Assembly (NCBI GenBank): GCA_050874845.1
Contig: JBNMLM010000001.1
Location: 987-64,986 of the forward strand
Length of the DNA stretch: 64,000 nucleotides
Direction: 5' to 3'
Source: Eubacteriales bacterium
GTDB taxonomy: Bacteria > Bacillota > Clostridia > Lachnospirales > Lachnospiraceae
Shown here piece after piece: positions 1,439 to 57,153 of this stretch; the first letter of the stretch is position 1, and every line of letters starts with the position of its first letter. A model generated the notes under the pieces. It saw only the letters and a list, made by a program, of their open reading frames with translations, made no database searches and had not been told where the DNA came from. The position numbers and the translations under genes are program-made.

Positions 1439-1660
1439 GCTGGTCCTGGTCAAAAGCGTTCGCAGAACGCGCAGCCACAGAATGAAATTCTGTGTTCAAA
1501 GGGGCTTGGGGGCGTTGCCCTCAACAAGCAAGCGGAGAGGAAAATCACGGAGGGATTTTCTTCTCTGCGGGCCTGTGTGTATTAACACAGGCATTGCTTG
1601 CCTCTTTTCTCCGAAATTGAAAAGAACCAGTGAGAGAATCGTTAAATTTCACTCACTGGC

Positions 1661-2017
1661 TCAATTCATTTCAAACTTTTCGGACAACTCTGTCAGTTCT
1701 TTCACCGTTTCCTGGGTGTGATGCAGCAGGGTGTCACGCATTTCTGGCGGACAGCTGGAATAAAGCATTTTCATCTGATTGACACCCTCATCCTCCAGAG
1801 AAACATCTGGATTTATAAGTGTATCTAAAGAGATGTGCAGGACCTTTGCCAATGCTCTTAAAATTAAATAAGAAGGATTCATTTTCCCCTTTTCGATATT
1901 GGCGATTTGCTTTACAGAAACATGGCTCAGATCCGCAAGTTCCTGTTGTGTCAGTTCTTTATTCTTTCGGGCTTCCCGCATTTTTTGCCCTAAAGCAGTC
2001 AAATCATCAATCGGCAT
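1661..2017 (-). CDS. XRE-family helix-turn-helix transcriptional regulator
   Basis: N-terminal HTH_3 signature (LTQQELADLSHVSVKQIANIEKGK) and an RBS upstream of the start. Confidence 0.8.
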   Translation of the reverse strand: MPIDDLTALGQKMREARKNKELTQQELADLSHVSVKQIANIEKGKMNPSYLILRALAKVLHISLDTLINPDVSLEDEGVNQMKMLYSSCPPEMRDTLLHHTQETVKELTELSEKFEMN

Positions 2018-10109: not shown

Positions 10110-11330
10110 TTGGCAAAAAGAAAAAGAGCAATTCCACAATACGGTACAGTTACGCTTAACGGCATAGATTATTATAGAACGCGGGTTCAGAACGCAGATG
10201 GAAAACTGGTGGCCCTTTATGCGAGAACACCGGAAGAATTATATGATAAAGAGTTGGGAGCATTAGAGCAGATCGACAACGATACATTCTGTCGGAAATC
10301 CCCGACGGTTGCAGACTACTGTGAAAAATGGCTTTTGATGCAGTCGGTTCATGTGAGGGCAACCACGCTGATAGATTATACCTCAAAGGTCAGACGGCAC
10401 ATTATAAAAGAACTGGGACAGATGCGGATGGCAGATGTGACACTGGATGACATTCAGCTTGCACTTGTTCCTGTTTCCGAGAAGTCCGCTTCGGTATATA
10501 AGTCAGTGGTTATCCTGTATAAATCCATTTTCCGTGCAGCAAAGGAAAGTAAGATTATTGATAACAACCCAACGACTTACCTTACAGCCAAAGGTGGAGG
10601 CGTTCCGCAGAAGGACAAAGCTGCATTGACGGATGAACAGGCCGCCAGACTGCTGGATGCCATTCAGGGACTTCCGCCGTATGTATTTGTCATGTTAGGG
10701 CTGTATGCAGGATTGCGGCGAGAAGAAATTCTTGCCCTAAAATGGGATTCTGTATATCTGGATGTGGATTGCCCTTATTTAACGGTACGCAGGGCATGGC
10801 ACACGGAAAATAACAGACCGGTGATTCTGGATGAGCTGAAAACGAAAGCCGCGCATCGAAATATTCCGTTGCCGGTTTGCCTGGCGGACTGTCTGAAAGA
10901 GACAAAAGCTAATTCACAGTCAGAATATGTGGTGCCGAACCGGGATGGTAATCCGTTGTCCTATACACAGTTCAAGCGGCTCTGGCAGTACATTGTAACC
11001 CGAACAGTCAAGGAGCGTTTCTATTATCGCTACGAGGATGGAAAGCGTGTAAAGCACACGGTTACGCCAGTCCTCGGTGAAAAGGCAGCGCATAACGGCA
11101 AAGTGATTTACAGTTTGGATTTTGAAGTGACACCGCATCAGCTGCGGCATACATACATTACGAATCTGATTCATTCGTCCGTGGACCCGAAAACGGTTCA
11201 ATACCTGGCGGGGCATGAGAGTAGTAAAATTACGATGGATATTTACGCAAAGGTTAAATACAACAGACCGGATGAGCTGGTAAGAACAATGGGTGGTGCA
11301 TTTGCCCAGTGGGATGCAGCACAGGCATAA
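10110..11330 (+). CDS. Tyrosine-type site-specific integrase (copy 1)
   Basis: Catalytic signature GLRREE, HQLRHTY, GH and MDIYAK. A TTG start at 10110 sits 8 nt after AGGAGG and aligns with the N-terminus of copy 2. Confidence 0.9.
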   Translation: MAKRKRAIPQYGTVTLNGIDYYRTRVQNADGKLVALYARTPEELYDKELGALEQIDNDTFCRKSPTVADYCEKWLLMQSVHVRATTLIDYTSKVRRHIIKELGQMRMADVTLDDIQLALVPVSEKSASVYKSVVILYKSIFRAAKESKIIDNNPTTYLTAKGGGVPQKDKAALTDEQAARLLDAIQGLPPYVFVMLGLYAGLRREEILALKWDSVYLDVDCPYLTVRRAWHTENNRPVILDELKTKAAHRNIPLPVCLADCLKETKANSQSEYVVPNRDGNPLSYTQFKRLWQYIVTRTVKERFYYRYEDGKRVKHTVTPVLGEKAAHNGKVIYSLDFEVTPHQLRHTYITNLIHSSVDPKTVQYLAGHESSKITMDIYAKVKYNRPDELVRTMGGAFAQWDAAQA

Positions 11331-11481: not shown

Positions 11482-12723
11482 ATGGCTAAGAAAAAACAAA
11501 GCGTTCCAGAGTACGGAACGGTTACAAGAAAAGGAACACTGTATTACAGAACCAGAATTACAGATGCCGATGGAAAGCAGGTCAGCTTATATGCGACCAC
11601 CTGTGAAGAATTATATGAAAAGCAGTTGGAGGCTCGGAGACAGGTGGATGAGATCATCTTTCACCGAGAGCATCCAACGGTTGCCGAGTATTGTGAGAAA
11701 TGGCTGCTGATGCAGTCAGCAAAGGTGTCTACGGCTACTATAAAAGGATACAGACAGAATATGAAGAATTATGTCATTAGCTCTCTGGGAGATATGTATA
11801 TGGAGGAAGTGACTGCGGATGATATTCGTCTGGCGCTTGTTCCGCTGTCTCAAAAATCGAAAGGACTGTATGATACGGTAAATATGCTGATTAAGTGTGT
11901 GTTTTATTCGGCAGAGCGCAGTCAGCTGATAACCGATAATCCATGTGTGGGAATTTCAGCAAAGGGCGGAAAAGCATCGAAAAAGAAAGATGCCTTAACA
12001 GATCAACAGGTTGCTGTTCTGCTGGATACGGTGAAAGAGCTTCCGCCATATCTTTTTATTATGATTGGTTTGTATTCCGGCTTGCGTCGGGAAGAAATTC
12101 TTGCATTGCAATGGGATTGTGTATTCCTGGATGAATCCACACCATACATTTCCGTGAGACGTGCATGGCGCGCGGAGCATAACAGGCCGGTGATTTCTAC
12201 CGTTCTAAAGACAAAAGCAGCTAAAAGGGACATTCCCATTCCGAAGTGCCTGGTGGACTGCCTGCGGGAAGCAAAAGCCAATTCCGTATCGGAGTATGTG
12301 ATTGCGGACAGTGAGGGACAGCCGCTTTCCTATTCTCAGTTTACGAGAGTTTGGCAGTATGTAGTTGTTCGTTCTGCGAAAGAGAGAACTTACTATAAAT
12401 ATGTGAATGGACAGAGCATCAAATATACTGTCAAGCCGACATTAGGAACAATGCAGAGGAACAATCCCAAGATTCGCTATACCCTGAATTTCGATGTAAC
12501 ACCGCACTTGTTGCGGCATACCTACATCACGAATCTGCTCTATGCGGGCGTTGACCCTAAGACAGTTCAGTACCTGGCAGGGCATGAGAATAGTAAGACA
12601 ACTATGGACATTTACGCGAGGGTCAAGTATAATAAACCAGAGGAACTTTTCGAGGTAGTGAATGATGCTTTGAACCAGGAGAATTTCGATGAAAAATCAC
12701 CGATTTCCATGGTTAAGGAATAG
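11482..12723 (+). CDS. Tyrosine-type site-specific integrase (copy 2, paralog of copy 1)
   Basis: Full-length alignment to copy 1 at roughly 60% identity by eye. The same catalytic residues are present (GLRREE, HLLRHTY, MDIYAR). Confidence 0.9.
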   Translation: MAKKKQSVPEYGTVTRKGTLYYRTRITDADGKQVSLYATTCEELYEKQLEARRQVDEIIFHREHPTVAEYCEKWLLMQSAKVSTATIKGYRQNMKNYVISSLGDMYMEEVTADDIRLALVPLSQKSKGLYDTVNMLIKCVFYSAERSQLITDNPCVGISAKGGKASKKKDALTDQQVAVLLDTVKELPPYLFIMIGLYSGLRREEILALQWDCVFLDESTPYISVRRAWRAEHNRPVISTVLKTKAAKRDIPIPKCLVDCLREAKANSVSEYVIADSEGQPLSYSQFTRVWQYVVVRSAKERTYYKYVNGQSIKYTVKPTLGTMQRNNPKIRYTLNFDVTPHLLRHTYITNLLYAGVDPKTVQYLAGHENSKTTMDIYARVKYNKPEELFEVVNDALNQENFDEKSPISMVKE

Positions 12724-14308: not shown

Positions 14309-14358
14309 ATTGACCTCTTTTCCGTGCACAGGGCACTATAATTTTATAACAAGATGTT

Positions 14359-14650
14359 GGGGGCAAAACATACTAGCTTAACGTAAGAGTGTATAACGTA
14401 TTATATTTATGCATATCAGCTCCATTGCCCGAAGCAAGATGTTCTAAGAACTCTGATAAAGGTATTGTATACGTTCGCCACCGAAGCAAAGCATACATCC
14501 GTGTATGCATTGCTTCTAAAGCAGCCTCCGTGCTGCTTTTGGCTAGGGACTTAGCAGAGCTCTAAGAACATCTAAGCTTCTCCCCAAAGTCGTGATATGC
14601 ATAAATATAATACGTTATACACGCTAAGTTTATAGAGCATGTTTTGCCCC
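14359..14650 (+). repeat. Nested-palindrome intergenic element, copy 1 (MITE-like or structured RNA)
   Basis: About 90% identical to copies at 20798-21103 (inverted) and 30882-31176. It has terminal, subterminal and internal inverted repeats plus two central hairpins. Confidence 0.85.
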
Positions 14651-14673
14651 AAACATCATAACAAAGAAAATAA

Positions 14674-18700: not shown

Positions 18701-19411
18701 GAAAGACCGCATGGACTGAGCGAGGGCGTTGAGCACGGAGTTAGATTTCTGGGGAAGGAGAGAACAAAAATCAGCTTTGGTGCGATGGATTTCGGCGTGA
18801 ACGGCTCAGAGCAGATACAGATGTACCTCTTTAAGTATTATCCGGGAGCGGTGAAATTCAAAATATATCTTGACGATGACAGTGACAGTATTCTGGACGC
18901 GGAATTTGACGAGAGCGCAGGCTGGCTTGAATTTAAGATGGCGGAATACAGGCTTTCGGAAAGAATAAAGGGAATACATTGTATCAGCATTGAGAGCGAG
19001 GATAATTTCCAGCTCAACAGATTCTCATTTGTGCCTGTGCTTCACGGCTTTGACCGCATAGATGCCGCAGATTATGATGAGATTTTCGGTGACAGCTACA
19101 GGGTGGACGGCACAGCTGTAACCGACATAGGAAACAACGTGTCAATCATCTACAGATGCCTCAATATGGGCGCACAGTCCGCAGATAAAATAAAAATCTG
19201 TGGAAGAACTGCAAATGCTAAGGATTCAATTCAGTTAAAAATAGTCTGTGCCGGAACGGAGCGGACGGAACTGATTGAATTTGAAAAGAGTGAAGCTTCG
19301 GTTGAGAGGGAGTTTGATATTGAGCCTGTCGGAGGGGAGATAACGGTGACATTCCTGTATCTTCCGGGCTGCAATTTCAACCTTGAGTGGTTCAGATTTT
19401 TACAGGAATAA
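15761..19411 (+). CDS. Glycoside hydrolase family 2 (beta-galactosidase-like) with a long C-terminal beta-sandwich/CBM-like extension; no signal peptide
   Basis: GH2 sugar-binding, Ig-like and TIM-barrel signatures (LNDGWQF, RTAHN, WSVGNE, GSE). GGAGG RBS at 15746-15750. Confidence 0.85.
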   Translation: MKRKICLNDGWQFLEKEYSEENLQCPDGEYEPVKLPHDYLIYDVKNLYRDSVGWYKRSLKYVPDGLERVLFFEGVYMDSEVFVNGRSAGTWKYGYSSFEVDITPYLEAGDNELLVRVVHRSPNSRWYSGAGIYRSVYLIERESTHIEPFGLYITPVKRVASDTWDVDVEVEIAQGADGEKPFDSIRYIITQKAGKHDTQSNVKDSSCIIFNQLIGEKSNTYRHNFEITAPQLWDIYCGNLYELSVELIRAGEVFDYEQSVFGFRTIEIDSDKGFFLNGRHVKIKGSCEHHGFGCLGAAVNKSAVRRKLEGLKRMGVNAIRTAHNMPSVEFMELADEMGFLVDSEAFDMWGHTKTTYDYGRFFAESAKKDVASWIRRDRNHPSIIMWSVGNEIYDMHAGDEGLAELSMLLVEVKKHDPRKHAFTTFASNYMRWENTQKCAGLVDAVGYNYGEYLYEEHHAKHPDWVIYGSETSSMLASRGVYHFPIETSTLCDTDEQCSALGNCSAGWGAHSYTDNIIADRDAGFSLGQFIWAGVDYFGEPTPYHTRNSYFGQMDTAGFEKDSYYIYQAEWTSFKENPMVHVFPHWDFNPGQVVDVCVCSNAPVAELFVNGVSMGRKTIDHAHGTELVPHWKVTYEKGYVEAVAYDEAGNELARQMRHSFSDADRLVIEADRRQMKNQYGELIFVEIGAFDKDGYTVDNANNRVEIKVTGAGRLVGLDNGDSTDFDQVKASSRRLFGGKLLAVIAPVEGMVGNITVTAEAEGLQAASIDLCVTDDKNMRDEYLVQSCICTDKNNMAEDMSGNSFQLSEDAEKRNHTRNGDGLMDSVYSENEIPIRKVELTAETLNLSACKSSVKVHWKLYPENATYRDLKWSITDTTGIAIKSATVTQQGEPDEVMIKTETGKAPDKMEAAEAQVKMEAGAMPSEGYVTVSVAGDGGFYLRCDAYNGRTAASVKSSLEFTADGIGPAYLDPYEPVSAGLCLERPHGLSEGVEHGVRFLGKERTKISFGAMDFGVNGSEQIQMYLFKYYPGAVKFKIYLDDDSDSILDAEFDESAGWLEFKMAEYRLSERIKGIHCISIESEDNFQLNRFSFVPVLHGFDRIDAADYDEIFGDSYRVDGTAVTDIGNNVSIIYRCLNMGAQSADKIKICGRTANAKDSIQLKIVCAGTERTELIEFEKSEASVEREFDIEPVGGEITVTFLYLPGCNFNLEWFRFLQE

Positions 19412-19417
19412 AAAACA

Positions 19418-19475
19418 GGTGTCAAAACAGGCTTGAAAATATACATCTTGGTATAAATCATCCTGTTTTGACACC
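19418..19475. terminator. Bidirectional terminator hairpin whose 14-bp arms match the terminal inverted repeat of the ~295-bp element
   Basis: GGTGTCAAAACAGG ... CCTGTTTTGACACC with a 30-nt loop, between the convergent GH2 and ddh genes. Confidence 0.6.
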
Positions 19476-19489
19476 ATAATTTTTAAGTC

Positions 19490-20473: not shown

Positions 20474-20797
20474 ATATTTTCTCCTTGATAATAAAATTAT
20501 GCTGTGGTCTTATATATTTCCACAACCTGTAACCTCAAATTGCTTTAATATTATAACGTATTGATGTCGAAAATGCAATTAAAGTTAGGTTAATCTAACA
20601 AAAAAATCCCGCATACTGCCAAGCAGGGCTGATGTAACCATATAAAATGTACTTTATAGATTTGCTTGGGATTTAGGAAAATTATAAGCTATGTATGTGG
20701 CATATTTAATAGGAGTATGCGTAAGATTTTAATTGTATATTTTGGCGCAATGCAATATAATAATCTATGTATGTATTTTTGTGTGTACGTGAATTGT

Positions 20798-21103
20798 GAG
20801 TTTGGTGTCAAAACATGCCGTGTATACTTGGCTGTGTATAACGTATTATGTTTATGTATATCACGACTTTGGGTAGAAGCTTAGATGTTCTTAGAACTCT
20901 GCTAAATATCTAGCCAAAAGCAGCACGGATGCTGCTTTAGAAGCAATGCATACACGGATGTATGCTTTGCTTCGGTGGCGAACGTATAGAAGACCTTTAT
21001 CAGAGTTCTTAGAACATCTTGCTTCGGACAACGGAGCTGATATACATAAACATAATACGTTATACACTCACAGAATGGATTGGCATGTTTTGACACCAAA
21101 CTC
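20798..21103 (-). repeat. Nested-palindrome intergenic element, copy 2 (inverted relative to copies 1 and 3)
   Basis: Here the terminal IR extends to 22 bp (GAGTTTGGTGTCAAAACATGCC). It lies 40 nt upstream of the GGDEF gene start at 21143. Confidence 0.85.
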
Positions 21104-21142
21104 ATAAGCAAATGAATTGTGATATCAGATTGGAGAACCATT

Positions 21143-22321
21143 ATGTCATGGATTGAGAATATGAGCATAAATATATTTCCGATGGTTCTTGTTATGGTTG
21201 TTTTTGTCAGCAACAGATTCAAGTTTGGAAAGACAATCAGTGCAAGAGTATTCGACCTGATTATTATGTTTGATTTTTTCCTTATGCTTGTAGATATCGT
21301 AGGGATTGCTGCAACTGATGCCATGTTTAGCGGAATGTCTGAGAGTGTGTGGATTATAAATGTTGTCAGAATGATTCTGACTGTGCTGCTTACATGTACT
21401 TGGTTTATATATGTGTGCCTTAAAATATCAATGGATGGCGCGGACAGAAGAGTGTGGGTTGCAGTGTATGCGTCGTTATCGCTGATGGCAATAGTATGTT
21501 TTGTTGTGTTGCTTATACCACATAGTTACCTCGGTGCTTATGGACTTCAGAATGCCGGAAGGGGACTAAGGGTATGCTATCTCGGAATCAGTTATTATGG
21601 TATTACAATGTTCGCGTGCAGTGCGGCAGTAGCATTGTACGGGATTGTGCACGAAAAAGATAATGAGATTCGAAGACTGTGTATATACCTTATGCTGTTT
21701 AGTGTCCTGCCTATTTTTGGAGTGGTTCTTCAGAATATTAATCAGAACTTAAGAACCTCTTCACCGTGCCTTTCGCTGGCGGTTCTGTATGTGTACGTGA
21801 CAATGCAGAACAAGAAGGTCATAACGGACGGACTTACAGGGGTAAATAATAGGCGTGAGCTGGATGCTTACCTTGAGAGAAGGCTGAAGCAGCAGACAGA
21901 CTGGGGAATGCTCCTCATAGATGTGGATGATTTTAAGAAGATAAATGACACAATAGGACATAAAATAGGTGACGAGGCCTTGTGGCATGTCGCTGATATT
22001 CTTCGCACGGAATTCTCGGGGGATGGCTGCTTTGTGGCGAGATACGGAGGAGATGAATTTGTTATATGCGGCGAATGGAAGAACAGGGCTGAGTTAGAGC
22101 AGTGCATGACATCAATTCATAAGAGAGTGGACAGCTTTAATAAGGAAAAGGAAAGGAATTATAAGCTTTCCCTGAGCGTTGGAGCGGCATTGTGGAGCGA
22201 ATGTGCAGACAGTGAAGCTTCTATAATTGAACTCGCCGATAAGAGAATGTATAAGCAGAAACAGATACATAAGGAACGGAGGAACGCCGGTAGTGAGCAA
22301 TATAGTATATATTCAGGCTAA
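21143..22321 (+). CDS. Membrane diguanylate cyclase (multi-TM N-domain + GGDEF)
   Basis: RYGGDEFVI active site and about 6-7 predicted TM helices. GGAGA RBS 7 nt before the ATG at 21143. Confidence 0.85.
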   Translation: MSWIENMSINIFPMVLVMVVFVSNRFKFGKTISARVFDLIIMFDFFLMLVDIVGIAATDAMFSGMSESVWIINVVRMILTVLLTCTWFIYVCLKISMDGADRRVWVAVYASLSLMAIVCFVVLLIPHSYLGAYGLQNAGRGLRVCYLGISYYGITMFACSAAVALYGIVHEKDNEIRRLCIYLMLFSVLPIFGVVLQNINQNLRTSSPCLSLAVLYVYVTMQNKKVITDGLTGVNNRRELDAYLERRLKQQTDWGMLLIDVDDFKKINDTIGHKIGDEALWHVADILRTEFSGDGCFVARYGGDEFVICGEWKNRAELEQCMTSIHKRVDSFNKEKERNYKLSLSVGAALWSECADSEASIIELADKRMYKQKQIHKERRNAGSEQYSIYSG

Positions 22322-23465
22322 CATATTCCCTATAGCAGCGCTGCTCGTGGTTATGAATAATCTTAAGCGCGATATGTCATTTTCATGGAGACGCCATTGC
22401 CTTGAAACTATAATGAAGCTCACGGTGTGTATAATGATATTTAATGTAGTGTGCTGGTGCCTGAACGGAAGGGAGGGGAACTTAGCCAAGGGCATACTGT
22501 GGGTCGGAAATACAGCATATTATGTATTTATGCTGTATATGGCATTTCTATGGTTTCTGTATGTGTATGATAAAGTGACGAACGGAAATGGACAGATGGG
22601 AATATCCATGTTTGTCAAGGCTATTCCACTTGTTATAAGTCTTGTCATATTGGCGGCAGGAGTGGTAAGACCGCTGATATTTTATATAGACGCTGAAAAT
22701 TTATATCAGCGTGGGCCACTTCATATTTTAAGTACGGTTGTTGCGGCAGGGTATATTTTTGTGGCATGTATTCTGGCATTTGTGGGGATGCTTAGGACGC
22801 AGGAACGCGAAGAGAGAAGACAGTATGGATATCTGGTGCTTTTTGGTGTATTCCCTCTGGTTGGTGGTATTGTTCAGATGTTCCTGTATGGTACGGATCT
22901 TCTATGGCCTATGACGAGTGTGGCACTTGTGATGGTGTACATTAATATCCAGCAGCAGAACGTCAGCCGCGACAGCATGACAGGGCTTAATAACAGGCGA
23001 AGGCTTGACCAGTATATAGCTGCGCTTTCCAAAGAACATATTAAGGAGCCGTTATGCTACAGTATAATGGACATTGATTATTTCAAGGAGATTAATGATA
23101 ACTTTGGACATCAGACAGGTGATAAGGTGCTGTGTCTTGTGGCGAATGCACTTAAAAAAGTGTATGGAAATACAAGAAGCTTTATTGCAAGGTATGGCGG
23201 GGACGAATTTGTGATAATATCACGCGGATTTGACAGTGAGCAGGCAGAGCATTATCGCGGAAGGCTTGAGAGGATGATTAAGGATATAGAATGTGAGGAG
23301 TTAGAGAATGGGGGACTGGAGATAAGTATGGGCTGCGCGCATTACGGCGAAGAAGGCTGTAAGCAGGTTCGTGATATGATGGAACTTGCGGATATGCGTA
23401 TGTATGATATAAAAAATGAGCACCATAATAACAACGCTGCTTTAATGTGGCAGAAAAGAGGATAG
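22293..23465 (+). CDS. Membrane diguanylate cyclase, tandem paralog (start codon uncertain)
   Basis: RYGGDEFVI motif and the same TM + GGDEF architecture. A GTG at 22293 follows GGAGG and aligns TM1 (NIFPIAALL) with NIFPMVLVM of the upstream paralog. Confidence 0.75.
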   Translation: MSNIVYIQANIFPIAALLVVMNNLKRDMSFSWRRHCLETIMKLTVCIMIFNVVCWCLNGREGNLAKGILWVGNTAYYVFMLYMAFLWFLYVYDKVTNGNGQMGISMFVKAIPLVISLVILAAGVVRPLIFYIDAENLYQRGPLHILSTVVAAGYIFVACILAFVGMLRTQEREERRQYGYLVLFGVFPLVGGIVQMFLYGTDLLWPMTSVALVMVYINIQQQNVSRDSMTGLNNRRRLDQYIAALSKEHIKEPLCYSIMDIDYFKEINDNFGHQTGDKVLCLVANALKKVYGNTRSFIARYGGDEFVIISRGFDSEQAEHYRGRLERMIKDIECEELENGGLEISMGCAHYGEEGCKQVRDMMELADMRMYDIKNEHHNNNAALMWQKRG

Positions 23466-29031: not shown

Positions 29032-30696
29032 TTACCTTACTGCCTCGTGGTTTATTTTTTTCATAGCGAATTTCTCACTGTACATCATCTTGTCCGCACG
29101 TCTTAGCGTATCTCCGATATCATAGTCCTCATCTGCGTTGTACATTTCGTAGCCACATGCAATATGAAGAGGAAAGCTGTCCGGATGTGCGGCATTATAA
29201 TCTGCGAGCAGCTTATTAAAGCTTTTGATACAGTCACGGCACTTAGCAATAGATATGCCATGTAACAGCGCACAGAATTCATCACCTCCCATTCTGTAAC
29301 AGTCACCGAAACTGCCGAAGGCTTTTTTAATCAGACCGGCACTCTCGACAATATATGAGTCACCATGGTCATGTCCGAAGTTGTCATTGCACTGCTTGAG
29401 GTTGTTAAGGTCAAACATGACAATTATATGTCCATCGGGCTTGAACTTGCTGTGCCCGATATATTTTGCATAGGCAGTTCTGTTAAAAAGTCCTGTGAGC
29501 TGATCGTGGTAAGCCATTTCCTCAAAGGCTTTTGCCTGACTTCCGATCTCCATAAGTGCCTTGGCTTCTTTGAGTGAGGTCATTCCAAGTGCAAGTATAT
29601 AGAATAAAAGACATGTGATTCCAAGGAATGACGGAAAGGCTCCATTTGTCAGGTAGTAGGCAACGATATCGACTAACAGTCCCACAAGGCATGCAAATGA
29701 ACATATAAATGAAAGCTTTATTTTAGGGTTCCATCCGTAACAGGTTACTTCTCTGTAAAACATAATGAACACTACCGGGATGTTAGAGAGCATCACGGCA
29801 TGGATAAGCCAGAGATTATCACGCATATCTGTTTTTGCACTTATCTGCAGCACTACAATTAGGATAAACACTATAATGTTAAATATACAAGGCACATTCC
29901 AGAGAAAGCTGTCTTTTTCCGTAAATGAGTTTCTCAAAAAACTTATAAAGGGAATACTCATCATCAACAGGCAGAAGTAGGAGGTGTACGATATCAATAC
30001 GGGGTTTTTTATAATTGCAGCCGTATAGTCAAGATCCATAAACTTCCATACACCGATGAGGATAGAAAAGAACCCTATCATAATCAGACTCTTATCAACA
30101 TGCCTGTTTCTTAAGTTCACAAGTGTGAAAAATATGAAGAATAAACCCGCAAGCACCGCGATGAAACATGTGAAATATATGATAATGTTAGGCGCCAGAA
30201 GGTGCTCATATATCTTGAATTGTGAACCAAGATAAAAAATAGGATGGGTGTTAACCATGCTTTTATAAAGCGGTGTCAGGACAATTCTAACTGTCTTTCC
30301 TACATCAGCGGGGCGAACAGGAATCACACACCAGTTAGAACCGGTGGTTTTTATAAATGAACTGTCATCCGGTGAGAGCGAATATATAAGCTCAGAGTCC
30401 ATATATACTTCGACTTTTTCATGTTTTATATAAAAGACAAGGTTAGAGCTGTTAGCCGGAAGAGCCGGCAGCGACAGCGTCAGCTCATTATACATCTTTA
30501 AAGGGGCATTATCGTCAGCTATTGTCTTGAATGTATCTGTTGTAATGATGCGGTATGAATCGGTAGGTCTGGTCGCAAATATGTTTATATGAAAATTTGA
30601 GCCGATATATGTGAGCATGCATACCAGAGCAAGGAGACAAGTAGCGTAAGCAGTGTATATGATATATTTTATTTTTTCATTATTTTTTTCCTTCAA
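29032..30696 (-). CDS. Diguanylate cyclase with an N-terminal external domain + 7TM (7TMR-DISM-like) + GGDEF
   Basis: RMGGDEFCA active site and 7 TM helices after a ~170-aa external domain. TTG start after GGAGG. Confidence 0.8.
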   Translation of the reverse strand: MKEKNNEKIKYIIYTAYATCLLALVCMLTYIGSNFHINIFATRPTDSYRIITTDTFKTIADDNAPLKMYNELTLSLPALPANSSNLVFYIKHEKVEVYMDSELIYSLSPDDSSFIKTTGSNWCVIPVRPADVGKTVRIVLTPLYKSMVNTHPIFYLGSQFKIYEHLLAPNIIIYFTCFIAVLAGLFFIFFTLVNLRNRHVDKSLIMIGFFSILIGVWKFMDLDYTAAIIKNPVLISYTSYFCLLMMSIPFISFLRNSFTEKDSFLWNVPCIFNIIVFILIVVLQISAKTDMRDNLWLIHAVMLSNIPVVFIMFYREVTCYGWNPKIKLSFICSFACLVGLLVDIVAYYLTNGAFPSFLGITCLLFYILALGMTSLKEAKALMEIGSQAKAFEEMAYHDQLTGLFNRTAYAKYIGHSKFKPDGHIIVMFDLNNLKQCNDNFGHDHGDSYIVESAGLIKKAFGSFGDCYRMGGDEFCALLHGISIAKCRDCIKSFNKLLADYNAAHPDSFPLHIACGYEMYNADEDYDIGDTLRRADKMMYSEKFAMKKINHEAVR

Positions 30697-30881
30697 TGAA
30701 ACCTCCTATGGATATATTTCTTATCGTCTGCTATTGGCAAAGTTAATGAAAATCACCGGCTGAGCCTTAGCGTACCTTGATTTAAACATACAAAATAATT
30801 ATATCATTGAATAGGCAGAAATAAAATATACTTTTTATACGTGGGCGGTTTTCGGGTTATATATTGGCATTACATGATGTG

Positions 30882-31176
30882 GGGGTCAAAACATGCCAAT
30901 TTAATGTACAAGTGTATAACGTATTATATTTATACATATCAGCTCCATTGTCCGAAGCAAGATGTTCTAAGAACTCTGATAAAGGTATTCTATACGTCCG
31001 CCACCGAAGCAAAGCATACATCCGTGTATGCATTGCTTCTAAAGCAGCATCCGTGCTGCTTTTGGCTAGGTATATAACAGAGTTCTAAGAACATCTAAGC
31101 TTCTGACAAAAGTCGTGATATGCATAAATATAATACGTTATACACAGCTAGGTATATATAGCATGTTTTGACACCC
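30882..31176 (+). repeat. Nested-palindrome intergenic element, copy 3
   Basis: Same architecture as copies 1 and 2. It lies in the divergent region between the GGDEF gene (start 30696) and the ABC ATPase (start 31288). Confidence 0.85.
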
Positions 31177-31190
31177 GAATCTTAACACGC

Positions 31191-31256
31191 AATTGTGAAA
31201 CGCAGTGTACTAGCAAAAGTGCACAACTGTTTATTGGCGAATCGCGTTTCACAATT
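31191..31256 (+). promoter_or_regulatory. Conserved 5'-region motif X: a perfect 13-bp inverted repeat enclosing a 40-nt core, shared with 57047-57153
   Basis: AATTGTGAAACGC ... GCGTTTCACAATT. The core GTGCACAACTGTTTATTGGCGAAT matches GGCACAACTGTTTACCGGAGAAT at 57118-57140 (part of the ~55-nt stretch about 75% alike). Confidence 0.5.
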
Positions 31257-53583: not shown

Positions 53584-55968
53584 ATGAGGAATAAGAAGTT
53601 TTTAAGCGTTATGTTATGCGGTACAATGGCAGCTACAATGCTTGCCGGATGTCAGAAGCAGGCTGGTTCGGATTCGACATCACAGCCGGACAGCTCTTCA
53701 CAGGAGTCAAGCGTACAGGAATCATCATCACAGCAGACAGTTAAGGCCGGTGAGATTCCACAGGATTACAAGTATTATTATTCATTTGATGCAGCGGACA
53801 ACAAGACTGATATCCAGCCTACTGCACAGACTATCGGCGGAGACCCTATCCTCAGTGCGGCAGACAAGGATGTTGTATATATTCCGGGTGTAAAGGGTGA
53901 TGCCGTATATACAGACGGTATAACAGGCTACAAGCTCACAGATGTAAATGGAGTTGGTGACAACTACACAATCTCATTCTGGCTCTATGCTACAAGACTT
54001 TCCAATTACATGCCGACAGTCCAGTTCGGACCGGATGTTCACGGAGATGCTACAGGCGGACAGCATTACACCAACATTACAAGAGCAGAGTGGTCGGGTG
54101 AGGGAACATTCCCATGTATATGGTCTTATGATCAGCTCGATAATGCACTCTGGCCGGCATGGTCGGATGCCGCAACAGGTGAGCCTATGAAGCAGTGGGT
54201 ACAGATTGCACTTGTTGTTGATTCTAACAATTTATCAGCAGACGGAACACTTATTGCTTCTAAGCTTTACATCAACGGACAGGAGTGGATTACCAAGGAT
54301 TCAGACGGAAATGTTGTTCCTGCCTATGTAACAAAGAACTGTATGCAGGCTTCTGATAACTTCGATTTCTTACTTGGTGTAAACTATTGGGATTCAGTAT
54401 TCAAGGGAGCTTTTGATGAGCTCTATATCTATGATTACGCTCTTAACGCTGAGCAGGTTGCAGCCCTCTATGCGGACGGAAATCCTAATGCAGAGTTCGT
54501 TGAGCCGGAGAGAGTTATAAATGTGGCTAAGGATGACAGCGCTATCGCTTCCATCGGTGCATTAGATTTCTCAAAGGCAGATGATGTATATTCAGAGCCG
54601 ATTGACATTGCCGATGGCCAGACAATGCAGATTAAGTTAAAGCATTGGTCAGACGGTAAGGACGCTAAGAACAACTACTACTTCGTATTCAAGGATGCAG
54701 ACGGAAATGAAGTTGCAAGAGTAAATGCCGATATGACAGGTACAGCAGACGGCAAGGATATAGCAGACAGCTGCTTTACATGGTCATGGGGCAACTGGAA
54801 TACATGGGAGCAGTCGGTAATGGTTGAGGCTGATGTAACCGCTACAATCACTTATGCGGACGGCACGGTTACAGTTGATGTTGACAATGTAGATTACAAC
54901 AAGACATCCAACACAGCAAAGGCTGAATTCCCTGTAACAGGAGAAATTGCTTCAATTGAGATTGGAACACAGTCAAGCTACACAGATATCCTTTCAATCA
55001 AGGATAAGACAGTTAAGGCAGAGGGCGTTATCGTAGGTAATACAGACTGCACAACACCTTTCTGGAGTGCATTCTCAGATGTATTTACAATTCCTGAGGG
55101 TGAGTCGGTTACAAAGACATTCAAGAACTACACAGACGGTGTAAACAACTGGGATAACTTTATTGTAGTACTTCAGACAACACCGGAAGGCCACAGCGCA
55201 GATGACGCTGAGGGATATGCAGAGTACGCAGTACTCCGTGCAGATAACTTCGGCTGGGGCGATGGCTACGAGACTGCAACTGCCGAGTGTGATTGGAACT
55301 GGGATACCTTCACATCCGATATTGACGGAGCAGAGGTTGAGGTTACTATAACCAACAATGGAGCAACAGCAGATGTTGTAGCTGTAGTTACAACAGTAGA
55401 CGGAACAGTATATACACAGAAGTACACAGGTATCACAACAGGCGGAGACTTAAATGCATGCTTCACATGTGAGGCTTCATATCTCTCATTCACTGCACCT
55501 ATAGTAGGAAGCACAGACTGCACAACACCTTTCTGGAGCGCATTCTCAGATATCTGGAGCGTTGAAAAGGGTGCTACTGTTACAAAGAGCTTCACTAACT
55601 ACACAGATGGAGTAAACAACTGGGATAACTTCATTGTAGTACTTCAGACAACACCGGAAGGCCACAGCGCAGCAGACGCAGACGGCTATGCAGAGTACGC
55701 AGTACTCCGTGCAGATAACTTCGGCTGGGGCGATGGCTATGACGCTGCAACAGTTGAGTGTGACTGGAACTGGGATACCTTCACAAGTGATATAGACGGA
55801 GCAAGGGTTGATGTATCTGTCACCAACAATGGTGATACAGCAGATGTTGTAGCTGTAGTTACAACAGTAGACGGAACAGTATATACACAGAAGTATACAG
55901 GTATCACAACAGGAGGAGACCTTAACTTCTGCCTTACATGCGAGGCAGCTTACCTTGTAATGGAGTAA
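53584..55968 (+). CDS. Surface lipoprotein with a LamG/concanavalin-like domain and three copies of a ~155-aa repeat (putative glycan-binding)
   Basis: Lipobox LAGC, a Ser/Gln-rich linker and a LamG-like block (YTISFWLYA...FDELYIYDYALN). There is one divergent repeat plus two near-identical ones. Confidence 0.7.
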   Translation: MRNKKFLSVMLCGTMAATMLAGCQKQAGSDSTSQPDSSSQESSVQESSSQQTVKAGEIPQDYKYYYSFDAADNKTDIQPTAQTIGGDPILSAADKDVVYIPGVKGDAVYTDGITGYKLTDVNGVGDNYTISFWLYATRLSNYMPTVQFGPDVHGDATGGQHYTNITRAEWSGEGTFPCIWSYDQLDNALWPAWSDAATGEPMKQWVQIALVVDSNNLSADGTLIASKLYINGQEWITKDSDGNVVPAYVTKNCMQASDNFDFLLGVNYWDSVFKGAFDELYIYDYALNAEQVAALYADGNPNAEFVEPERVINVAKDDSAIASIGALDFSKADDVYSEPIDIADGQTMQIKLKHWSDGKDAKNNYYFVFKDADGNEVARVNADMTGTADGKDIADSCFTWSWGNWNTWEQSVMVEADVTATITYADGTVTVDVDNVDYNKTSNTAKAEFPVTGEIASIEIGTQSSYTDILSIKDKTVKAEGVIVGNTDCTTPFWSAFSDVFTIPEGESVTKTFKNYTDGVNNWDNFIVVLQTTPEGHSADDAEGYAEYAVLRADNFGWGDGYETATAECDWNWDTFTSDIDGAEVEVTITNNGATADVVAVVTTVDGTVYTQKYTGITTGGDLNACFTCEASYLSFTAPIVGSTDCTTPFWSAFSDIWSVEKGATVTKSFTNYTDGVNNWDNFIVVLQTTPEGHSAADADGYAEYAVLRADNFGWGDGYDAATVECDWNWDTFTSDIDGARVDVSVTNNGDTADVVAVVTTVDGTVYTQKYTGITTGGDLNFCLTCEAAYLVME
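55030..55965 (+). repeat. Tandem in-frame 471-bp duplication inside the lipoprotein gene
   Basis: 55030-55500 and 55501-55965 are roughly 90% identical at the nucleotide level. Both encode GxTDCTTPFWSAFSD...VVAVVTTVDGTVYTQKYTGITTGGDLN. Confidence 0.9.
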
Positions 55969-57046: not shown

Positions 57047-57153
57047 ATTGCGAAAATTAGTTTGCTATGCGAATTATTACGGGTTTCAAAGGTTGCAGAA
57101 GTGCACTGGTAAAATGGCACAACTGTTTACCGGAGAATTTACGTTTCGCAATT
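57047..57153 (+). promoter_or_regulatory. Conserved 5'-region motif Y (homolog of motif X at 31191-31256)
   Basis: A 10-bp IR AATTGCGAAA/TTTCGCAATT and the core GTGCACTGGTAAAATGGCACAACTGTTTACCGGAGAAT. It ends 35 nt before the ATG at 57188. Confidence 0.5.

Follow-up and report, generated by a model that had tools for sequence, protein, structure and literature searches.

Correia elements of Neisseria, ERIC/IRU sequences of enterobacteria, and RUP/BOX elements of pneumococcus are small intergenic repeats that are dispersed in their hosts, have terminal inverted repeats, show target duplications, and fold as a long hairpin when transcribed. REPINs are hairpin repeats as well, and Bertels and Rainey are said to have found in 2011 that mutations in one REPIN arm are matched in the other arm, which would imply selection for a single-stranded hairpin. 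Target duplications of 7–8 bp together with terminal inverted repeats are typical of the double-strand, DDE-type insertion of IS elements and not of the ssDNA (HUH) pathway. Invertons, such as the invertible promoters of Bacteroides and the flagellar and cmr switches of C. difficile, are single-locus switches.

The structured RNA that is closest to the locus described here is TwoAYGGAY (Rfam RF01731). Its closing helix P1 was described as 'often very large' in the supplement of the original report, where the alignment already contained at least five copies from a single Psychromonas genome, with flanks that are alike beyond the motif (Weinberg et al. 2010, PMC2864571). Gardner and Eldai (2015, PMC4333381) predicted that TwoAYGGAY binds CsrA via its two GGA loops, and judged its 'external stem' to be 'not well conserved'. 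Literature from 2025 describes this RNA as still 'relatively unexplored'.

We analyzed a stretch of 64,000 nucleotides from a Eubacteriales bacterium of the Lachnospiraceae (hereafter, the window). Repeat finding revealed a unit of ~306 bp in three copies, all of them intergenic, at 14353–14657 (copy 1), 20798–21103 (copy 2), and 30876–31181 (copy 3). Comparison of the repeats placed copy 2 in the orientation opposite to that of copies 1 and 3. In each copy, the central 164 nt match RF01731 over its full length (model positions 1–168), with scores of 115.1, 113.1, and 102.9 bits (gathering threshold, 43 bits). The TwoAYGGAY sense strand is the + strand in copy 2 and the − strand in copies 1 and 3. 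The boundaries of copy 2 are exact (GAG at 20798 and CTC at 21103), and its predicted RNA fold reaches −161.3 kcal/mol (z = −20.3). Its core (20869–21032, + strand, 115.1 bits) consists of a long P1 and two hairpins with ACGGAU loops at 20925–20930 and 20954–20959; other copies have the loop variants CAUGGAU and CAAGGAU. Each unit carries GGA in two hairpin loops of the type CACGGAUG. No other Rfam family matched across 20700–21200 with E up to 1.

Because the Rfam model stops at 20869 and 21032, the two outer stems of copy 2 lie outside it. The inner of these is a 30-bp subterminal helix, whose 5′ arm (20834–20863, + strand) and 3′ arm (21038–21067, + strand) are 100% complementary. It is separated from the ends by two non-palindromic linkers on the + strand that form an internal loop, one highly variable (5′ linker, 20820–20833, π 0.28) and the other variable (3′ linker, 21068–21081, π 0.23). 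The outer, terminal stem is formed by the terminal inverted repeats at 20798–20819 (5′, + strand) and 21082–21103 (3′, + strand), the latter with CATGTTTTG at 21084–21092. In the 5′ repeat, the outer ~11 nt vary and the inner CAAAACATG (20809–20817) is conserved. Repeat finding gave outer arms of 20794–20819 and 21082–21107, with 96% complementarity. Together, the 27–30-bp helix and the terminal stem add ~57 base pairs beyond the Rfam model, which under-describes the structure of the element.

A core pattern run against genomes returned seven more full-length copies (Lachnospiraceae, Eubacterium, Clostridia) and five more distant TwoAYGGAY members, and 14 further RF01731 matches were found in related loci. 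A second pattern returned 102 stretches of human-gut metagenomes, and BLAST of the collected loci (numbered with the prefix L) gave about 116–120 copies, 85 of them distinct. The element is thus small (~306 bp), non-coding, multi-copy, and dispersed, with three copies in 64 kb of the window and 120 copies with 47 distinct flank pairs in the collected loci. For the analysis of base pairing, we aligned 61 full-length copies in sense orientation, drawn from both genomes and gut metagenomes (alignment A2); these copies share descent, and some of the metagenome contigs are mosaic and could be assembly chimeras. All TwoAYGGAY members form a hairpin that reaches 60–100 nt past both ends of the Rfam model, even the distant ones, which have unrelated outer sequences. 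The specific core pattern had no match in viral contigs, where all 12 matches of a general two-loop pattern were due to chance; ~25 of the 40 matches of this general pattern in genome contigs were also chance matches. The annotated plasmid collection contained no match to the element, and the phage collection only eight, all in unannotated human faecal-virome fragments labelled 'Bacteriophage sp.' (including MT837682.1 and MT836195.1); these may be phage-borne copies or co-purified bacterial DNA. As a separate observation, the roe-deer Lachnospiraceae MAG locus L013 carries divergent TwoAYGGAY units head to head, at 1251–1418 (−) and 1622–1789 (+). The two units differ in their self-complementary arms of ~80 nt, and the outer pairs that can be aligned include 10 double changes.

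The explanation that we consider probable is that these copies represent a dispersed MITE-like element of human-gut Lachnospiraceae, with an invertible extended TwoAYGGAY hairpin whose subterminal helix is under selection on the sense strand. The first-pass annotation had pointed to two mirrored changes in the subterminal arms between copies 1 and 2, and these are indeed present, as the copy 2 arms read ...TATTATGTTTATGTATATCA and the copy 1 arms (14389–14418 and 14593–14622) read ...TATTATATTTATGCATATCA. One A-T pair became G-C and one C-G pair became T-A, each change being matched in the partner arm; the probability that two partner-arm changes match in position and base by chance is ~2.5e-4. 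The same stem of copy 3 has a single mismatch, which is A·C on the + strand and hence G·U on the TwoAYGGAY strand. Pairing of this helix was retained when the comparison was extended to the 61 copies of A2, where its 27 pairs were 99.4% paired and 11 of them were changed on both sides, compared with 1.9 ± 0.8 in shuffles (0 of 500 shuffles were as high). When the partners were slid against each other, no more than two pairs were changed on both sides. The double changes are spread over lineages (L040, L111, L093, L152, copy 2, and a group termed type B below).

This spread bears on the alternative that there is no pairing constraint at all, and that the arms match through recent common descent and because both are binding sites of one protein (e.g., a transposase). 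The high sequence conservation of the 30-bp arms agrees with such an account, but at least 10 separate lineages have different double changes, at 11 different pairs of the helix. Moreover, a binding site in dsDNA predicts neither an excess of G·U over A·C nor the restriction of intermediates to wobble pairs on one strand, and the distant TwoAYGGAY subfamilies have arms that are unrelated in sequence yet self-complementary. We therefore regard descent without a pairing constraint as most improbable for this helix.

Selection for pairing on the sense strand is further indicated by the uncompensated states. On this strand, the subterminal stem, P1, and core together contained 36 G·U cells vs 8 A·C cells; counted as events by our own count, the same states amounted to 18–27 G·U vs 8 A·C. 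Rare transitions in the unpaired columns had the opposite bias, with 10 of the G·U-making and 21 of the A·C-making kind. The difference between paired and unpaired columns gave Fisher p values of 0.006 to 0.0003. On the conservative count (18 vs 8), the strand bias itself was modest (p = 0.04), and the 9 G·U vs 4 A·C events of the 30-bp stem alone were not significant. A comparison of substitutions in paired and unpaired positions, as suggested in the first-pass annotation, showed a depletion of transversions in paired positions, with transitions to transversions of 30:17 in paired and 31:52 in unpaired positions (p = 0.003). For 53 of 60 copies, the sense strand of the outer arms alone gave the better fold (mean difference, 5.3 kcal/mol), and the diversity of the stems (π 0.02–0.05) was far below that of the linkers (π 0.23–0.28). 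At the polymorphic pairs 57/264, 63/258, and 64/257, the intermediates were G·U on the sense strand, although some of these may be recombinants. Other G·U states persisted, namely U·G at 68/253 in four loci, G·U at 11/309 in 16 copies, and G·U at 38/282 in 10 copies. Since these states are common to copies at many loci, one arm is not copied anew from the other whenever the element transposes.

The persistence of these wobble pairs is also a difficulty for a mechanism in which DNA copying, by quasipalindrome template switching or gene conversion, keeps the arms complementary without any selection for pairing. Recombination between the inverted ends clearly occurs (see below), three of the ~13 double changes are transversion pairs (e.g., A-U to U-A) that templating would easily explain, and the terminal repeat has an inner motif with almost no variation and full complementarity. 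However, copying should have removed the G·U states at 68/253, 11/309, and 38/282, which are unchanged across many independent loci, and it predicts neither the strand bias nor the depletion of transversions. It also does not account for the linkers and inter-helix junctions, which are non-complementary in all copies, and the inversion breakpoints map to the terminal repeat, so that crossover does not take place in the 30-bp arms. Maintenance by copying is thus improbable in our view, and obligatory arm-to-arm templating is disfavoured. The first-pass annotation had left two options, selected pairing (of RNA or of an ssDNA/cruciform structure) or templating of one arm by the other, and had recognised neither the TwoAYGGAY core nor the transposon ends and the inversion in place; for the subterminal stem, the double changes, the G·U bias, and the depletion of transversions favour selection for pairing, on a single strand that is most likely RNA. 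The sequence conservation of the 30-bp stem (π 0.04) exceeds what pairing alone would need, which hints at an additional, sequence-specific reader of this stem.

The terminal stem behaved differently from the subterminal helix. Here, the first-pass annotation was correct about copy 1 (GGGGCAAAACAT / ATGTTTTGCCCC) and copy 2 (GGTGTCAAAACATG / CATGTTTTGACACC), but not about copy 3, to which it had assigned the arms of copy 2. The terminal arms of copy 3 are unlike each other, with GGGGGTCAAAACATG on the + strand in one arm, while the other arm pairs as GGGTGTC. In A2, seven pairs of the terminal stem were changed on both sides, vs 5.6 in shuffles, and 74 of 500 shuffles were as high. Its diversity was high (π 0.23), and its covariation was essentially dimorphic, between type A (GATGTTGGGGTC...) and type B (GATTCGGGTGTC...). 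Common descent without a pairing constraint fits this stem, and its matched differences, which do not require selection for pairing, are mainly inherited differences of two subfamilies. The outer part of the terminal repeat had no strand bias, and its G·U turns into A·C once the interior is flipped.

The arms of the terminal stem constitute the terminal inverted repeats of a small, non-autonomous MITE-like transposon. The repeats are ~22 bp long and have the form GAT...CAAAACATG / CATGTTTTG...ATC. Direct repeats flush with these ends were exact over 7 bp in 12 and over 8 bp in 5 of the 47 flank pairs; with up to one mismatch, target duplications of 7–8 bp were found at 24 of the 47 loci, compared with about 3 (2.3 + 0.5) when the flanks were permuted. 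The insertion targets are AT-rich. In the window, copy 1 (− strand) is bordered by an exact duplication of a 7-bp target (ATAACAA on the + strand), and copies 2 and 3 have no duplication. The IS256 family, which has ends starting with GA and duplications of 8–9 bp, may be a lead. No pair of terminal repeats 1–3 kb apart, as expected for an autonomous partner, was found in ~1.1 Mb of collected loci. Empty sites were likewise not found among the collected loci, all of which were chosen for carrying the element; L134 and L154 lack the element at the position of copy 1, yet their upstream flank also differs. An origin as a retron, a CRISPR array, or an IS200/IS605 end was rejected, as there is no recurring gene, target duplications are present, and the hairpin is single.

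In three orthologues of copy 2 (L107 7374–7757, L134 12696–12986, and L059 1243–1533), a 55-bp deletion corresponding to window positions 21071–21125 has removed the 3′ terminal arm. The orphan 5′ terminal arm of these strains has 3 changes in 22 nt, vs 5 in ~250 nt elsewhere in the element, and a strain that retains both terminal arms at this locus has no change in its 5′ terminal arm. The 30-bp stem stays perfect in all three deletion strains. Other deletion derivatives lack the TwoAYGGAY core. Units of ~190 bp (L082 7369–7556, L094 1270–1456, L053 850–1036, and L106 14262–14448) arose by deletion between GTTCTTAGAAC repeats of P1, and units of 55–85 bp (L091 8741–8796, L048 5712–5791, and L150 6618–6703) contain little beyond the terminal repeats. 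Several of the deletion derivatives have target duplications of 7–8 bp. In the flanks of L070, L097, L104, and L153, one element is nested in another, with the target ATATAAT, inside a sequence resembling the 30-bp arm of a core-less host copy. The window also contains a short hairpin (19409–19485, strand not assigned) with arms CAGGTGTCAAAACAGG that resemble the terminal repeat, a possible repeat-only relative. It lies between convergent GH2 and diaminopimelate dehydrogenase genes and occupies the same place in L107, L134, and L154. This hairpin may be a derivative reduced to the repeats, with a present role as a terminator.

The ~262-bp interior of the element was found in both orientations at 8 of the 37 flank clusters with multiple members, or about 5 of 19 orthologous loci. 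At the locus of copy 3, L155 and L156 carry the element with an exact ATGTAAT duplication and in the orientation opposite to that in the window and in L084 (compare L084 3292–3594 with L155 7761–8067). Further mixed-orientation loci are L085/L088/L091 vs L100/L118, L016 vs L062/L082/L131/L116, L046 vs L087/L090/L147/L151, and L117 vs L152; their flanks and target duplication are unchanged between the two states. At the cleanest locus (L085/L088/L091 vs L100/L118), the interiors differ by 3 of 261 nt after flipping, and the flanks by 0–6 per 200 nt. At the inverted loci, the two terminal repeats are unlike each other in their outer ~12 nt, and these outer parts remain with the flanks, while everything from the linker inward is flipped. 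This places the crossover inside the conserved CAAAACATG / CATGTTTTG motif. Independent reinsertion was rejected as the cause of the opposite orientations because it would shift the ends too. Ambiguity of De Bruijn graphs or k-mers was also rejected, since the exact repeat at the breakpoints is only ~10 nt, the outer variants follow the flanks, and each state is represented by several independent assemblies. Inversion in place explains why the outer terminal stem has no strand bias (pair 11/309 is G·U or A·C depending on the state).

Copy 3 (− strand) is chimeric and lies at a rearrangement junction. Collinearity of the window with a 98.3%-identical strain (L155, L156) stops within the element, at 30982, which marks the element as a breakpoint of rearrangement. 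On the far side, the window has an ABC transporter, and L155 has HTH/SdpI-like genes. A 39-nt motif, AGTGYACTRG.AAAA.GCACAACTGTTTA..GG.GAAT, was observed twice in the window (31190–31256 and 57100–57138) and has no Rfam match; at 31190, it is framed by a 13-bp inverted repeat (AATTGTGAAACGC / GCGTTTCACAATT) upstream of an ABC transporter gene. The window also has direct repeats at 55029–55328 and 55500–55799 (300 nt, 86% identical, 471 nt apart) and at 10610–10764 and 11979–12133 (155 nt, 72%), which are probably repeated domains or neighbouring paralogous genes.

The genes around the element do not recur, as no associated gene was common to the surroundings of the 120 copies. Copy 1 is located between an AraC-family gene and a MIF-like ORF. 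Copy 2 lies ~40 nt upstream of a GGDEF gene (21143–22321, +) and copy 3 upstream of a GGDEF diguanylate cyclase gene (29032–30696, −), both co-oriented with the gene; this adjacency may be due to chance, because the region has three GGDEF genes (the third at 22227–23465, +). A promoter scan found no sigma-70-like promoter in or beside copy 2. Between co-directional genes, the element was in sense orientation in 16 and in antisense orientation in 15 cases. This random orientation is explained by inversion in place, and it implies that read-through would yield the antisense strand in half of the cases. As there is no preference of orientation relative to the neighbouring genes, we abandoned a simple cis-regulatory interpretation.

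The lack of a recognizable promoter at copy 2 and the random orientation relative to genes would also suit a strand-specific ssDNA hairpin or cruciform that serves as a substrate for transposition or inversion, as proposed for REPINs and the ends of IS200/IS605. Pairing would then be under selection because of mobility and not because of an RNA function. The element does move and invert, several loci have core-less derivatives with retained arms and target duplications, and G·T is tolerated in DNA hairpins and is the least disruptive mismatch in ssDNA. However, the 7–8-bp duplications and terminal inverted repeats point to double-strand, DDE-type insertion and not to the HUH pathway. Wobbles are tolerated on the strand whose core is scored as a structured RNA, with loops that are asymmetric and conserved, and the inversion breakpoints map to the terminal repeat rather than to the 30-bp stem. 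We consider an ssDNA substrate rather unlikely, and return to the MITE-like element with an RNA-like subterminal helix.

Under this preferred explanation, the element is a non-autonomous transposon of ~306 bp with terminal inverted repeats of ~22 bp, whose insertion duplicates 7–8 bp of an AT-rich target. Its ~262-bp interior is an extended TwoAYGGAY unit, in which the core is closed by P1 and then by a further helix of 27–30 bp, and the hairpins of the core present CAYGGAUG loops of the CsrA-site type. Purifying selection would keep the subterminal helix paired on the TwoAYGGAY sense strand, most likely in a transcript, and changes in this helix would proceed via G·U wobble intermediates to full compensation. 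The terminal stem is a feature of the DNA level, comprising the transposon ends and the inversion site, and the interior can invert by recombination inside the CAAAACATG motif of the terminal repeats. The family identity, architecture, covariation, strand bias, target duplications, and inversion in place are observed here, and from them we infer transcription, processing of the 30-bp duplex by an RNase III-type enzyme, binding of CsrA, and the enzymes that move and flip the element, with processing and CsrA binding suggested by general knowledge of long dsRNA and CsrA sites.

A more speculative extension, to which we assign a low probability, is that TwoAYGGAY RNAs are not ordinary sRNA genes of their hosts but the payload of mobile invertons, hairpin transposons that would spread in Lachnospiraceae genomes and flip their interior at the conserved CAAAACATG repeat. 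Flips would then switch between co-transcription of the sense strand, a long hairpin with two CsrA-type GGA loops, and of the antisense strand with the neighbouring gene, and the element would act as a dispersed phase-variable post-transcriptional switch, e.g., upstream of c-di-GMP cyclase genes. Apart from this extension, our analysis shows TwoAYGGAY of gut Clostridia as a transposed, invertible unit with ~57 extra base pairs, in which the inner helix evolves in an RNA-like manner and the outer stem behaves as the transposon ends. For an RNA class that has been an orphan since 2010, this now gives testable statements about the strand that is made, the action of RNase III and CsrA, the transposase or recombinase involved, and the effect of flipping on neighbouring genes. 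In practical terms, the element is a rearrangement breakpoint between close strains and can give rise to contig ends or chimeras in gut metagenome assemblies.

The kinds of elements that meet here are already known: the TwoAYGGAY family, MITEs, hairpin repeats with compensatory evolution, and invertons. In the open-access literature searched, we found no precedent for their combination, in which an orphan structured RNA is carried by a transposed, in-place inverting element with DNA-level ends and an RNA-like inner helix. The element shares with the TwoAYGGAY motif the two AYGGAY loops, the long closing P1, the occurrence in human gut Clostridia, and multiple copies per genome. It adds the outer helices, terminal inverted repeats, target duplications, and inversion in place, none of which appear in the TwoAYGGAY literature examined. 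Like Correia, ERIC/IRU, and RUP/BOX elements, it is small, non-coding, dispersed, and intergenic, with terminal inverted repeats, target duplications, and a long hairpin, but it is larger, has an asymmetric conserved RNA centre with loops resembling protein sites, inverts, and has no sequence similarity to them. With REPINs, it shares the character of a hairpin repeat with arm-matched mutations, whereas REPINs are shorter, depend on a RAYT gene, and do not have target duplications. Membership in the REPIN/REP-RAYT group was rejected, given the 7–8-bp duplications and the unit of ~306 bp.

As in invertons, a segment between short inverted repeats occurs in both orientations at a given locus, with breakpoints inside the repeats, and some copies are located directly upstream of c-di-GMP genes. 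In contrast to invertons, the element is a transposed multi-copy family, known here by its opposite orientations between assemblies, and no promoter was found in copy 2. A last comparison concerns the CsrA-binding sRNAs of the CsrB/RsmZ type. The SELEX consensus of CsrA is RUACARGGAUGU, and the element has two hairpin loops with GGA and a AUACACGGAUGU sequence that resembles this consensus; unlike these sRNAs, however, the element presents just two candidate sites per unit, and does so on a mobile repeat.
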